From Candidatus Falkowbacteria bacterium (GTDB taxonomy: Bacteria > Patescibacteriota > Patescibacteriia > UBA11705 > JABHMO01), in contig JABHAL010000008.1 in assembly GCA_018674305.1 (NCBI GenBank), forward strand, positions 954 through 64,953: a DNA stretch of 64,000 nt. Direction: 5' to 3'. Numbering within the stretch: the stretch's first letter is position 1; the number at the start of each line of letters is the position of its first letter. A program made the position numbers and the translations under genes. Below, in pieces: positions 37,755 to 40,953 of this stretch. Under the pieces are notes generated by a model. That model saw only the letters and a list, made by a program, of their open reading frames with translations, was not told the DNA's origin and did not search any database.

Positions 37755-39212
37755 TTATTTTGAAAATTTAGGAATGAATTTTTTCCAGTTTTTGTTTTTC
37801 TGAGTTTCAATATGCTGTCTGGCAGTTCTGGTCTTAACAAAGTTTAACCATTCAGGGTTTGGCCCTTTACGATTTTTGTCAGTAACAATTTGTACTACGT
37901 CACCATTTTTTAGTCTGTGATCAAGTGCAACAATTTCGTTATTAATTAAAGATCGCGAACATTTGTTGCCAATCTCTGTATGAATATGATAAGCAAAATC
38001 AATTGGAGTAGCGCCATCAGGTAGATCGATTACGTCACCTTGTGGGGTAAATACAAAAATTCTATTTTGAAATACATCAATTTTAGCACCTTCTAAGAAT
38101 CGGTTATTGTCACCAATTTGTTTTAGCCATTCAGCCAGTTCCTGTACCCATTCAACTTCCTTTTTGCTAACTTTTTGGAATTCTTTATATTGCCAATGCG
38201 CTGCGATTCCTAGTTCTGCCTGATCGTGCATTTTTTGGGTTCTGATTTGAATTTCTACAATTTCTTGGTCATCTCCAAACACAGCAGTGTGTAGAGATTG
38301 GTAGCCGTTTGGTTTTGGTTGAGCAATATAGTCTTTGATCCGACCACGAATTGGTTTCCAAACATTGTGAATAATACCAAGCACAGCATAACAATCAGCT
38401 ACACTATCAACTATGATACGCATGGCAACCAAATCATAGATTTGTTTTATATCATTGTGATATTTTTGGTATTTTCTGAAAAAACTGTAGTAATGTTTGG
38501 TCCTTCCGTATATATCATAATATTTTATGTCGTCCTTGTCTAATTTATTTTTGATTTTCCGGACCATATTGTTCAATGTTTTTTTCTTGATCGGAAAATT
38601 GTTCTTTATAAGTTGTTCTGTTTTGTTAAAATCATCTGGGTAGGCATATTTAAAAGCAGCATCCTCCAGTTTGGATTGTAGTTCACCAATCCCTAATCGA
38701 TTAGCAATTGGTGCATAAATTTCCAAAGTTTCTTGAGCAATTCTTTTTTGCTTGTCTGCAGGTAATGCGTACAAGGTTTGTAGATTATGTAAACGGTCAG
38801 CAAATTTTATCAGGACAACCCTGATATCCTGGGCCATCGCTACAAACATTTTTCTTAGGTTTTCGACATAACGATCTATCCCTCGATACTTAATACGTCC
38901 CAGTTTTGTAATGCCTTCAACCATGCTAGCAATGTCAGAGCCAAATTCAGTTTTAATGTTCTCTAGAGTGAACTTGGTGTCTTCAGGAACATCATGTAAT
39001 AGCCCAGCGGCAATCATTGAGATTGGTAATTTTAGTTCAGCCAAACTATTAGCAGTTTGTAGACAATGCTCGATATAGTCATCGCCAGTTGATCTTTTTT
39101 GGCTCAGGTGAGCAGTCTCAGCAAAATTATAAGCTTGCTCAACTAGGTCTAGGTCAGCTTGTTTGCAATCATGAGTTTCTTTAATTGTCTCCAGTAATTG
39201 GCGGATGGTCAT
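37755..39212 (-). CDS. bifunctional (p)ppGpp synthetase/hydrolase, short RelA/SpoT homolog (HD + synthetase + TGS, no ACT)
   Basis: HD motifs HLSQKRSTGDDYIEH and LLHDVPEDT. Synthetase motifs GRTKHYYSF, DLVAMRIIVD, YQSLHTAVFG, EIQIRT, AHWQYK. TGS domain IFVFTPQGDVIDLPDGATPIDFAY. Confidence 0.85.
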   Translation of the reverse strand: MTIRQLLETIKETHDCKQADLDLVEQAYNFAETAHLSQKRSTGDDYIEHCLQTANSLAELKLPISMIAAGLLHDVPEDTKFTLENIKTEFGSDIASMVEGITKLGRIKYRGIDRYVENLRKMFVAMAQDIRVVLIKFADRLHNLQTLYALPADKQKRIAQETLEIYAPIANRLGIGELQSKLEDAAFKYAYPDDFNKTEQLIKNNFPIKKKTLNNMVRKIKNKLDKDDIKYYDIYGRTKHYYSFFRKYQKYHNDIKQIYDLVAMRIIVDSVADCYAVLGIIHNVWKPIRGRIKDYIAQPKPNGYQSLHTAVFGDDQEIVEIQIRTQKMHDQAELGIAAHWQYKEFQKVSKKEVEWVQELAEWLKQIGDNNRFLEGAKIDVFQNRIFVFTPQGDVIDLPDGATPIDFAYHIHTEIGNKCSRSLINNEIVALDHRLKNGDVVQIVTDKNRKGPNPEWLNFVKTRTARQHIETQKNKNWKKFIPKFSK

Positions 39213-39231
39213 TTGTCATGAAACATATATC

Positions 39232-39285
39232 ATGAATCATGTATCATTACTTCTGTTAATGTTACATGTTACATGCTACAGGTTT
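39232..39285 (-). promoter_or_regulatory. RelA/SpoT homolog 1 promoter region with extended -10 (TGCTACAAT) and CATGWAWCAT direct repeats
   Basis: Minus strand reads TTCTGCTACAATATATATACG. Plus strand shows ATCATGAATCATGTATCAT and TGTTACATGTTACATG repeats. Confidence 0.35.
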
Positions 39286-39315
39286 GGTGATTAACGTATA
39301 TATATTGTAGCAGAA

Positions 39316-40953
39316 TTAAAGGTTTCTTTCCATGGGAGGACGGTTGAAATAATTTTCAATACTTTTCTTGGCTCCAGGAGTTTTGACAAATTCAAGCCAT
39401 TCGGCTTTGGGGCCAGCCTGAGAGCGGTCAACAATGATTTTGATTATGTCATTTGAGGAAAGTACGTAGTTGAGTGGCACTGGTAACTCGTTTACAAATG
39501 CTTCACTACATTTATGACCTACTTCAGTGTGGACTTGATAGGCAAAGTCGATTGGCGTGGATCCTTCAGGTAATGAGATAACATCACCCTTTGGCGTGTA
39601 AATATATATTCTGCCGCCCAGGATTTCAGAATGGAATTTAGCCAAAAAGTCCTGGTCGCTTTTGTGTTGTTGTTGTTTGATTAATAGTTCTTGGATCCAT
39701 TCAGGTGATTTCTTGCGTGGATTTTTGTAATACCAATGTGCAGCAATGCCATAATCAGCAGTTTCGTTCATTTCTTTTGTTCTCACTTGAAACTCTGTCA
39801 ATCTATTGTTGATCCCGATTACAGTAGTATGTAAGCTTCGATATTGGTTACTTTTAGGGTCAGCAATATAGTCCTTGAATCGTCGCTGTTTTGGTTTCCA
39901 TAGTCGGTGAATATGACCAATCATTCGATAGCAGTCATCAATCGAATCAACAACCACTCTCAGTGCGAAAATATCACCGATCTCATAAAAACTTTTTTTC
40001 TTTACAATCATTTTTCGATGAATGCTATGAAAATGTTTGAAACGGCCACTTATCTGACAGTTGATGCCTGCCATTTTTGCAGTTTTTGTTAGATGGTTTT
40101 TTGTTTTATGAATATATTTATCACGATTCTTTCTTTCATCTACATTGAACCGTTGATTGATTTTTTCATATTCTTCTGGTTCTAAGATTTTGAATGAGTA
40201 ATCCTCGAGTTGCCAACGCAATTGCCAGATACCAAGTAGGTCGGCCAATGGTGCTAAAATTTCTCTTGATTCTAGGGCAACGTTACGTAACTTTTCATCT
40301 GAGGAAATAAGCCGATGTTTCATTCTATCAATATTTGAACTCATTTTGATAATAATCACTTGGAGATCCTCGGCCATGGCAATGGTCATCTCTCTGAGTT
40401 GATTGACGTACAGTTGATTGTTTGCGGTTCTAATCTTTCTGATTTTTTGAAAATTTGCACACAGTTTAGCTACTTCTTTGCTGGTTAATTTTTCTATTTT
40501 TTGGGAGGAGAGTTGTGATAATACGGGAAGTTCGTGTAATAATGCAGCGCAAATTGCTGCAGTAGACATTTTGATTTTTGCTAAAGTTAAAGCGGTCCGG
40601 TAAACATGTTCAAAATAGGCTTCATTTTTGCCAGACAAATATTGTCTGGCCAGGTCGTAGGATTTTACAATTAAGAATATATCCTCTGAGAGATCTTTTT
40701 GTATTTTCTCAAAAATATTTTTATCCCTTTTTGGCAAATCAAAAAGAATAGCAGCGCAAATAAATTCAATTCTAGCATTCTCCTTCGCCAAGTAACTTGC
40801 TCTTTCTAGCGCCTTGTTTTGTAGGTTTCGCTTGTCTATGAAGGGAAGATCCTTGGTTTGCTCTTTGAAAAATTTGAATGTTTTGCGAATGATCGTAAAA
40901 GAGGGAATTGGCTGCTTTTCTTCGATTAATTGAATTATCTTTTTAATAGCCAT
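39316..40953 (-). CDS. RelA/SpoT homolog paralog with degenerate HD domain (likely synthetase-only)
   Basis: Synthetase motifs intact (GRFKHFHSI, ALRVVVD, YRSLHTTVIG, EFQVRT, AHWYYK) and a TGS domain. The HD position reads LLHELPVLS in place of LLHDxxED. Confidence 0.8.
   Translation of the reverse strand: MAIKKIIQLIEEKQPIPSFTIIRKTFKFFKEQTKDLPFIDKRNLQNKALERASYLAKENARIEFICAAILFDLPKRDKNIFEKIQKDLSEDIFLIVKSYDLARQYLSGKNEAYFEHVYRTALTLAKIKMSTAAICAALLHELPVLSQLSSQKIEKLTSKEVAKLCANFQKIRKIRTANNQLYVNQLREMTIAMAEDLQVIIIKMSSNIDRMKHRLISSDEKLRNVALESREILAPLADLLGIWQLRWQLEDYSFKILEPEEYEKINQRFNVDERKNRDKYIHKTKNHLTKTAKMAGINCQISGRFKHFHSIHRKMIVKKKSFYEIGDIFALRVVVDSIDDCYRMIGHIHRLWKPKQRRFKDYIADPKSNQYRSLHTTVIGINNRLTEFQVRTKEMNETADYGIAAHWYYKNPRKKSPEWIQELLIKQQQHKSDQDFLAKFHSEILGGRIYIYTPKGDVISLPEGSTPIDFAYQVHTEVGHKCSEAFVNELPVPLNYVLSSNDIIKIIVDRSQAGPKAEWLEFVKTPGAKKSIENYFNRPPMERNL

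Follow-up and report, generated by a model that had tools for sequence, protein, structure and literature searches.

Do the two adjacent RelA/SpoT homologue (RSH) genes found in a 64-kb stretch of DNA from a Candidatus Falkowbacteria bacterium (contig JABHAL010000008.1) encode two versions of the same alarmone enzyme, or have the synthesis and the degradation of (p)ppGpp been divided between them, and what is encoded in the DNA upstream of the pair? Here, "the window" denotes this whole 64-kb stretch (37% G+C), to which all coordinates refer; RSH-A is the minus-strand gene at 37755-39212 (485 amino acids, aa) and RSH-B the minus-strand gene at 39316-40953 (545 aa). An earlier interpretation made from the letters and their translations (the sequence-only reading) had placed two adjacent minus-strand genes in this region, and open reading frames (ORFs) of these lengths were found at exactly these positions. 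Our overall reading, to which we assign a probability of approx. 70%, is that an ancient duplication of a Rel gene, whose copies have stayed in tandem, gave rise to a bifunctional RSH-A and a synthetase-only RSH-B, and that these are accompanied by two mutually pairing small RNAs (sRNA1 and sRNA2).

Comparisons were based on the best 120 database relatives, from which we defined an RSH-B type (46 proteins of at least 535 aa plus RSH-B itself, n = 47) and an RSH-A type (72 proteins of 470-535 aa). Relatives of RSH-B carried the labels Patescibacteria group, Parcubacteria group or Candidatus Falkowbacteria, and the identical RSH-B protein occurred on at least 23 contigs from metagenomes and metagenome-assembled genomes (47 indexed blocks). 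The JGI samples 3300024243 and 3300024260 are examples of metagenomes that contain the identical contig. Both proteins were aligned to B. subtilis Rel (PDB 6yxa), whose residue numbering is that of RelSeq. The flanking loci of relatives (designated by L-numbers) were obtained solely by exact-protein look-ups; when genome contigs were scanned with RSH-B as the single query, a distant locus from Rossellomorea was all that was found.

Both proteins consist of an HD domain, a RelA_SpoT synthetase domain and a TGS domain, with no Pfam match to helical, ZFD/CC or ACT/RRM domains past the TGS domain in either paralog; the sequence-only reading had likewise described HD, synthetase and TGS domains without ACT/RRM. 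In RSH-A, a long RSH of Rel type ([HS]) that is truncated C-terminally, the domains span aa 27-175 (HD_4/HD; E = 1e-47), 236-344 (RelA_SpoT; E = 1e-40) and 385-444 (TGS, PF02824; E = 6e-24). In RSH-B, all on the minus strand, they span aa 102-243 (40225-40650; HD_4, E = 1.8e-30), 303-412 (39718-40047; RelA_SpoT, E = 1.6e-38) and 449-507 (39433-39609; TGS, PF02824, E = 5e-20), and 38 aa remain between the TGS domain and the C-terminus. Both proteins thus end approx. 40 aa past the TGS domain, where the helical domain would begin, and both cover only positions up to approx. 454 of the 687 positions of the spoT_relA profile TIGR00691 (1-454 for RSH-A). Against this profile RSH-A scored 599.7 bits, above the curated cut-off of 499.2, and RSH-B scored 449.3 bits, below it. 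Among solved structures, the closest relatives of the two proteins were Rel, RelA and SpoT.

The hydrolase residues R44, H53, H77-D78, E81-D82, D144 and N148 were all present in RSH-A and canonical in 72/72 proteins of the RSH-A type, and the segment LLHDVPEDT stands at the aligned HD position, so that the H...HD...ED signature previously attributed to the downstream gene holds. RSH-A also carries the complete set of synthetase residues (D264, E323, Q325, the G-loop Tyr and His, and RXKD, here RIKD). As a separate observation, in one related locus (L011, 6837-8312) two frameshifts split the RSH-A gene over three frames, with tblastn still covering residues 2-484; this broken gene represents either a long-read error or a recent pseudogene.

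In RSH-B, the aligned HD position reads LLHELPVLS, and the catalytic residues are lost, again as had been noted: D78 is replaced by E, E81/D82 by V/L, D144 by S, H147 by D and N148 by R, and R44/K45 are lost, R44 by deletion. This pattern is shared by the RSH-B type, in which position 144 is S in 47/47 proteins, R44 is deleted in 45/47, D78 is replaced by E in 33/47, E81/D82 are variable and position 147 is D in 44/47 and E in the other three. One detail had been misread, as the gene was said to lack the upstream His of the HD domain; the equivalent of H53 (in EAYFEH) is present in RSH-B and in 47/47 proteins of its type, as is H77 in RSH-B and in 44/47, and it is R44/K45 that have been lost. 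In Rel/SpoT enzymes, mutagenesis has established that loss of the ED dyad, of the metal ligand or of H77/D78 abolishes hydrolysis. Because the ED dyad and the metal ligand are lost, we infer from the protein sequence that RSH-B is a synthetase-only enzyme, i.e., an [hS] protein with a pseudo-hydrolase, an intact synthetase and a TGS domain. Several RSH-B-type records with NCBI-sourced names (including NQT49793.1, MBI5077223.1, MBI5254387.1 and MBT5338591.1) are called 'bifunctional (p)ppGpp synthetase/guanosine-3',5'-bis(diphosphate) 3'-pyrophosphohydrolase', a name that is probably wrong, as the hydrolase residues are absent.

The synthetase motifs, all of which had been reported as kept in RSH-B, are kept in both paralogs when aligned residue by residue. 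Fourteen tabulated synthetase positions, among them the Asp that binds Mg, the catalytic residues Glu and Gln, Tyr and His of the G-loop, and the RXKD motif, were 96-100% conserved in both types (46-47 of 47 RSH-B-type and 70-72 of 72 RSH-A-type proteins per position), and within the RSH-B clade the residues for catalysis and substrate binding vary hardly or not at all; the RXKD motif of RSH-B reads RFKD, with R, K and D each found in 47/47. Mean identity within the RSH-B type was 74% for the synthetase, 64% for the TGS domain and 46% for the pseudo-HD domain, a pattern that we read as the signature of a domain that is retained but catalytically released. The diverged HD region and the score below the TIGR00691 cut-off would also fit a decaying or non-functional duplicate (a pseudoenzyme), but we consider this highly improbable: the RSH-B frame is intact in approx. 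47 clusters spanning 40-92% identity, and neither the conservation of the synthetase nor its (near-)invariant catalytic positions agree with decay.

An AlphaFold2 (AF2) model of RSH-B, built from a 60-sequence alignment (predicted local distance difference test, pLDDT, 85.6; predicted template modelling score, pTM, 0.82), matches the structures of Rel, RelA and SpoT. A well-folded pseudo-HD domain could have been repurposed rather than merely released, with H53, H77, E78 and S144/D147 forming a new metal or ligand site that serves hydrolysis of another nucleotide or allosteric sensing of (p)ppGpp or another ligand. The near-complete conservation of both histidines and of the newly acquired S144 and D147 favors this possibility, since fixed new residues are not what random decay would leave. 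However, the ED dyad and the substrate-contacting residues R44, K45 and N148 are lost or variable, the domain evolves faster than the synthetase, and the established mutagenesis results for H77/D78 and the ED dyad argue against hydrolysis; we therefore regard repurposing as unlikely and retain the interpretation of RSH-B as a putative synthetase-only enzyme.

All RSH-B-type proteins carry an additional approx. 95 aa at the N-terminus, and in RSH-B this extension (aa 1-97; 40663-40953, minus strand) is a degenerate copy of HD-domain residues 1-99. The extension profile matched residues 1-99 of the RSH-A-type HD domain with an hhalign probability of 98.2% (E = 4.4e-14) and RSH-B's own pseudo-HD domain with 96.6%, and the extension alone gave a weak HD_4 match (E = 0.001). 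From these matches it follows that the N-terminus of RSH-B is a degenerate second copy of the first half of an HD domain, and that a complete pseudo-HD domain comes after it. Both His residues are lost in the extension copy (ICAAILFDLPKRD vs ICAALLHELPVLS), and the extension is helical in the AF2 model (pLDDT 71-96). A phmmer search with the extension alone against 1.84 billion representative proteins gave six matches at E <= 0.001, of which four were full-length (549 aa) or short (82-272 aa) and fit RSH-B-type proteins or fragments, and two were unrelated in length. Judged from these searches, the HD-fragment extension is limited to a narrow clade. Among the matches of this search, two unrelated-looking proteins of 5042 aa (P0128) and 249 aa (P0130) matched the extension weakly in three to four repeated stretches (E = 3e-7 and 2e-4, respectively), a likeness that possibly reflects helical-repeat or compositional similarity.

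RSH-A and RSH-B are 38% identical over 458 residues, and their duplication is therefore old. In neighbour-joining trees, which are crude and were rooted with E. coli RelA and included the B. subtilis and mycobacterial Rel proteins, the 47 RSH-B-type proteins were monophyletic, with the Patescibacteria RSH-A-type proteins as their neighbours. Those RSH-A proteins whose genes adjoin RSH-B formed a separate group in these trees, and RSH-B grouped with Patescibacteria Rel and not with E. coli RelA. Truncation after the TGS domain was common to both paralogs and to every Patescibacteria homologue among the matches listed, and is therefore older than the duplication. The order topA, gap, RSH-B, RSH-A and a gene with a T4SS_pilin domain was found in all lineages examined, including those in which RSH-B identity is as low as 43%, with extra genes between topA and RSH-B in L009 and L136; a Patescibacteria region with a lone RSH-A-type gene showed a different neighbourhood. 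Taken together, these data indicate that Rel was duplicated independently in this case, giving an [HS]/[hS] pair.

This arrangement resembles the RelA/SpoT pair of Beta- and Gammaproteobacteria, in which likewise one copy combines a degenerate HD domain with an intact synthetase and the other keeps the hydrolase, and in which the pseudo-HD is kept as a folded domain. The sequence-only reading had proposed a split into Rel-like and RelA-like enzymes, and the residue alignment to Rel structures and the 47/47 clade pattern bear this out, with the reservation that RSH-B would be RelA-like in function only. RSH-B scored 309.6 bits against the RelA equivalog model NF008124 (cut-off 728), consistent with an independent origin; it has RXKD where RelA has EXDD, and it keeps both HD histidines, unlike RelA. 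RelA docks on the ribosome via its helical, ZFD/CC and ACT/RRM domains, which RSH-A and RSH-B do not have, and the adjacency of the two genes and the partial internal HD duplication of RSH-B are both unlike RelA/SpoT.

The kind of event, i.e., a lineage-specific second Rel, is already known, because Atkinson et al. 2011 (PMC3153485) described such second copies as RshB in Bacteroidetes and RshC in Bacillus; in RshB the HD domain is strongly diverged and 'similar to RelA', and the same study provides precedents for Rel duplicates with a diverged HD domain or with truncation after the TGS domain. An architecture described in that study is that of both RSH-A and RSH-B, in a different phylum, and the comparison is one of description. 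New in the present case are the phylum, the truncation common to both paralogs, the tandem layout and the duplication of an N-terminal HD fragment, which has not been reported for the Rsh groups. A literature search returned no paper that mentions RSH enzymes of the candidate phyla radiation (CPR), the main text of Jimmy et al. 2020 included.

Are the two enzymes expressed together? An extended -10 element (TGCTACAAT, 39312-39304), which had been pointed out in the spacer between the paralogs (39213-39315) and proved to be conserved in relatives, lies just past the RSH-B stop codon within a predicted internal promoter for RSH-A (39304-39332, minus strand). In 8/10 lineages, the RSH-B stop codon is overlapped or directly adjoined by an equivalent TGnTAnAAT, mostly TTTGATATAAT, and it is thus very probable that RSH-A has a promoter of its own; in L009, RSH-B and RSH-A instead overlap by 4 nt. 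The putative RSH-B promoter (40962-40989, minus strand; TTGATT-N16-TGCTAAATT) fell below the threshold of the promoter scan and was read from sequence and conservation: the motif CTTGATTTTT(C/T)CCTAAAATATGCTAAAT just upstream of the RSH-B start is conserved in the window, L005, L007, L009, L012 and L133. This promoter ends approx. 8 nt before the ATG, which suggests that the RSH-B mRNA is leaderless or near-leaderless, without a Shine-Dalgarno sequence. As each RSH gene appears to have its own promoter, independent expression of the two would be possible. In L134 (3403-4000), an insertion of approx. 190 nt lies between the RSH-B promoter motif and the RSH-B start; its ends form a perfect inverted repeat (GTGAGATGGTTGCGAAAC ... 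GTTTCGCAACCATCTCAC), and it resembles a miniature inverted-repeat element.

The spacer also contains the CATG-type repeats to which attention had been drawn. CATGWAWCAT occurs six times in the window (0.72 expected; 0/100 shuffles reached 6), and five of the six matches lie in the spacer, three on one strand and two inverted, where they form an imperfect 34-nt inverted repeat and the arms of a predicted hairpin in the 5' untranslated region of RSH-A (39216-39290, minus strand; -18.6 kcal/mol, z = -2.85). The enrichment is therefore confirmed; conservation is not, and a functional role is unsupported. In relatives the spacer ranges from -4 to 233 nt in length and differs completely in sequence, with own short repeats or hairpins in several of them, so that the CATG repeats are real but lineage-specific. 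Many short degenerate, lineage-variable tandem repeats were also found at 41301-41416 in the window and in the intergenic DNA of L005, L006, L007, L134 and L136 (e.g., AAATCCTAAATCCTAAAC, TCTAGAATCTAGAAAGTAGAAAATAGAA and GTAACCTGTAACCCGTCACCTGTCACC), and the CATG repeats may be a further instance of this general intergenic-repeat habit.

Upstream of RSH-B, the sequence-only reading had placed a consensus promoter at 40998 and a terminator that together delimit a small RNA, and both features proved to be conserved. The sRNA1 promoter (40998-41026, plus strand) reads TTGACA-N17-(TGC)TATAAT, with a 12/12 match and an upstream TG. The predicted sRNA1 transcript (41033-41098, plus strand; approx. 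66 nt) comprises an unpaired 5' seed (GUUGAUGGUAGGG), a small hairpin and an intrinsic terminator, whose hairpin and U-run end at approx. 41098 (-26.8 kcal/mol, z = -3.8). The unit was found upstream of RSH-B in 10/11 lineages, with two copies in L009 (11 copies in total). TTGACA and the 17-nt spacing were invariant in 11/11 copies, the -10 box was TATAAT in nine copies and TATACT in two, and the 5' sequence was conserved as UGUUGAUG(G/A)UAGGG. Compensatory changes affected 11/16 pairs of the terminator, a value reached in 0/500 shuffles, and the signal collapsed in slid controls. Covariance-model matches for the sRNAs (E = 1e-9 to 1e-21) occurred in RSH-B loci alone, and an RSH-A-only locus matched neither model. 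Because of the conserved promoter, the conserved 5' sequence and the covarying terminator, sRNA1 is very probably a real RNA.

The possibility that sRNA1 encodes a peptide, starting at an AUG in the seed, was rejected: neither frame nor peptide is conserved, owing to indels in the loop of the hairpin, and the AUG is absent from L010. A scan of metagenome contigs for exact 14-mer matches to the seed gave 120 loci, all without the promoter/terminator context, and these were attributed to chance. In L009, the two sRNA1 copies are in tandem (4577-4646 and 4719-4792); the second differs in its seed (GUUGAUUGAUAGGG) and has an additional hairpin at the 5' end.

The earlier suggestion that sRNA1 is antisense to RSH-B and lies over its promoter was not upheld, because sRNA1 is transcribed away from RSH-B, from a predicted start approx. 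80 nt upstream of, and divergent from, the RSH-B start codon. A related possibility is that sRNA1 acts in cis on RSH-B through divergent overlapping promoters, by interference or through a shared palindromic -35 region. In its favor, sRNA1 lies directly upstream of and divergent from RSH-B in 10/11 lineages, even where topA has been displaced (L009 and L136), and the -35 boxes of the two promoters are 8 bp apart in the window. The two transcripts do not overlap, however, and the distance between the promoters ranges from approx. 8 to more than 100 bp among relatives (compare L005, L007 and L134). The palindrome TTGACAAAGTCAA that had been described at the -35 is present in the window but was not conserved in the loci of relatives. 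Moreover, the conserved parts of sRNA1 are the single-stranded 5' seed and the terminator, i.e., the anatomy of a trans-acting RNA, and its best partner in the 64 kb is sRNA2. Action in cis is therefore quite unlikely, and a trans-acting sRNA1 that pairs with sRNA2 is the reading we prefer.

sRNA2 is predicted to be transcribed from its own promoter (41139-41167, plus strand; TTGACA-N17-TATTAT) as an RNA of approx. 127 nt (41174-41300, plus strand), which consists of a conserved element of approx. 64 nt (41174-41237) and a 3' hairpin (41238-41300). An outer stem (GUAGGG..UCUG/CAGA..CCCUAC) encloses the conserved core; the loop CCCUUAUCAUCAAC is complementary to the sRNA1 seed, and the conserved interior CCCU(U)AUCAUCAAC is the complement of the sRNA1 5' end. 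The 3' hairpin is near-perfect, with 29 bp in the predicted fold, is flanked by A- and U-runs and is a bidirectional terminator. The element was found in 10 lineages (covariance model, E = 5e-13 to 2e-21). In its outer stem, 7/10 pairs showed compensatory changes (0/500 shuffles reached the observed value); for the inner helices, whose columns are invariant, RNAalifold and the single-sequence minimum free energy structure disagree. sRNA2 is inverted relative to sRNA1 in L005, L010 and L134, and in L005 and L010, the two loci whose flanks were read, its promoter and terminator have turned along with it, which an autonomous gene would be expected to show.

In 9/9 genomes tested, sRNA1 and sRNA2 were predicted to form a continuous duplex of 12-18 bp (-18.5 to -27.0 kcal/mol). 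Among the 130 cells given by 13 seed-loop positions in ten genomes, 118 were Watson-Crick pairs, nine were G-U pairs and three were mismatches, all of them terminal. In L010, double compensatory changes were observed in two pairs (A-U became G-C, and G-C became A-U), and the L010 seed paired with its own sRNA2 at -27.0 kcal/mol as compared to -13.6 to -20.3 kcal/mol with the sRNA2 of other genomes. Both in the window and in every flanking locus, sRNA2 ranked first among the non-self partners of the sRNA1 seed; one site in the window (48695-48718) pairs with the seed at a similar energy and is unsupported by conservation, and no recurrent sRNA1 target other than sRNA2 was found in the window and the flanking loci. 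The shared motif of 13-15 nt could instead be a DNA operator, bound in two orientations by one protein, in which case the sRNAs would not be functional RNAs; the inverted occurrence of the same motif fits this view, and the concerted change in L010 is also what a co-evolving DNA-binding protein would produce. Yet the consensus promoter and the terminator of each element move with it when its orientation flips, the stems outside the motif covary, and the nine internal differences between the DNA copies are all G-U-compatible, with no A-C among them, which fits RNA pairing and not a DNA site. This explanation is thus improbable, and we infer that sRNA1 and sRNA2 constitute an sRNA/anti-sRNA (sponge-type) pair, an assignment based on the sequences and their covariation.

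Like other sRNA/sponge pairs, sRNA1 and sRNA2 would be two independent, terminator-ended RNAs with strong promoters, in which a seed meets an exposed region; they have no sequence or structure match in Rfam, and their interaction is a predicted one. No gathering-level match to Rfam 15 was found for sRNA1 or sRNA2 in the region, in E-value mode the long terminator hairpin alone was matched, spuriously, by models of miRNA type, and ARAGORN detected no tRNA or tmRNA in the sRNA intergenic region. The identification of sRNA2 as a tRNA-like, SRP, 6S, retron or type I toxin-antitoxin RNA found no support from these tools or from neighbour genes. We know of no Hfq or ProQ context for CPR bacteria, and the papers found by literature search describe no small RNAs of Patescibacteria.

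We thus propose that a Patescibacteria Rel, truncated just past the TGS domain, was duplicated long ago and that the copies stayed in tandem. RSH-A would have remained a bifunctional Rel-type (p)ppGpp synthetase/hydrolase and would be the source of all alarmone degradation, while RSH-B would carry out synthesis only, its faster-evolving, folded pseudo-HD domain acting as a regulatory scaffold, as in RelA. Separate promoters would allow the synthesis-only and the degradation-capable enzymes to be expressed independently. sRNA1 and sRNA2 would be independent genes, transcribed from near-consensus sigma-70 promoters of their own and ended by intrinsic terminators, and in vivo the unpaired 5' end of sRNA1 would pair with the conserved loop of sRNA2 over 12-18 bp in a sponge-type interaction.

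Several observations weigh against this proposal. The crude neighbour-joining trees are compatible with a tandem duplication in this lineage as well as with transfer of RSH-B from another Patescibacteria lineage, and RSH-B is 43-46% identical to the RSH-A proteins of other lineages as compared to 38% to its own neighbour. The RXKD motif of RSH-B is, by its residues, that of bifunctional enzymes and not the EXDD of RelA, and the retained H53 and H77 together with the new, invariant S144/D147 leave room for a remodelled metal or ligand site. If the broken RSH-A gene of L011 were recently inactivated, this would be awkward for RSH-A as the sole hydrolase. With regard to the sRNAs, the double compensatory changes in the seed-loop pairing stem from a single lineage (L010); one RSH-B lineage (L012) matched neither covariance model and is thus without both sRNAs; and in L009 sRNA2 (1671-1745) stays beside topA, two inserted genes away from sRNA1. 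Linkage of the sRNAs is therefore not obligatory.

It is tempting to go further and to propose that sRNA1 and sRNA2 form a regulatory RNA pair of CPR bacteria not described before and tied in function to the alarmone module, and that the remodelled, partly duplicated pseudo-HD domain of RSH-B is a new ligand-sensing domain which replaces the ribosome-binding C-terminus; we consider this doubtful. If it were true, sRNA2 might, for example, titrate sRNA1, which would control RSH or growth-related mRNAs, and the stringent response of ultra-small symbionts could be triggered independently of the ribosome. As CPR/Patescibacteria have minimal genomes with few regulators, a fixed tandem RSH pair suggests that alarmone signalling matters to their lifestyle. 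The pair would represent an independent replay of the RelA/SpoT split in enzymes that naturally have no ribosome-docking C-terminus, and thus a natural experiment on the control of synthesis and hydrolysis in enzymes without such domains. The two conserved, complementary sRNAs, which belong to no Rfam family, are concrete targets for metatranscriptomics.

Some further features of these loci were recorded. The intergenic region of L012 (4727-5000) has 52% G+C, as compared to 31-41% elsewhere, and contains many G/C-rich inverted repeats; a comparison with Rfam at E <= 0.01 found nothing there, and a structured RNA of another kind could be present. In L003 (1333-3537), topA is split into two ORFs (144 and 522 aa) on a contig that is otherwise the same as the window, a probable frameshift or assembly error. 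Directly downstream of RSH-A, the window encodes a secreted, cysteine-rich and repeat-rich protein of 1314 aa with a C-terminal T4SS_pilin domain (33777-37721, minus strand), and a pilin-domain gene occupies this place in most lineages examined, with sizes from 136 to more than 1300 aa. Three clustered tRNA genes (Met-CAT, Met-CAT and Leu-CAA) lie at 28826-29404 on the minus strand of the window.

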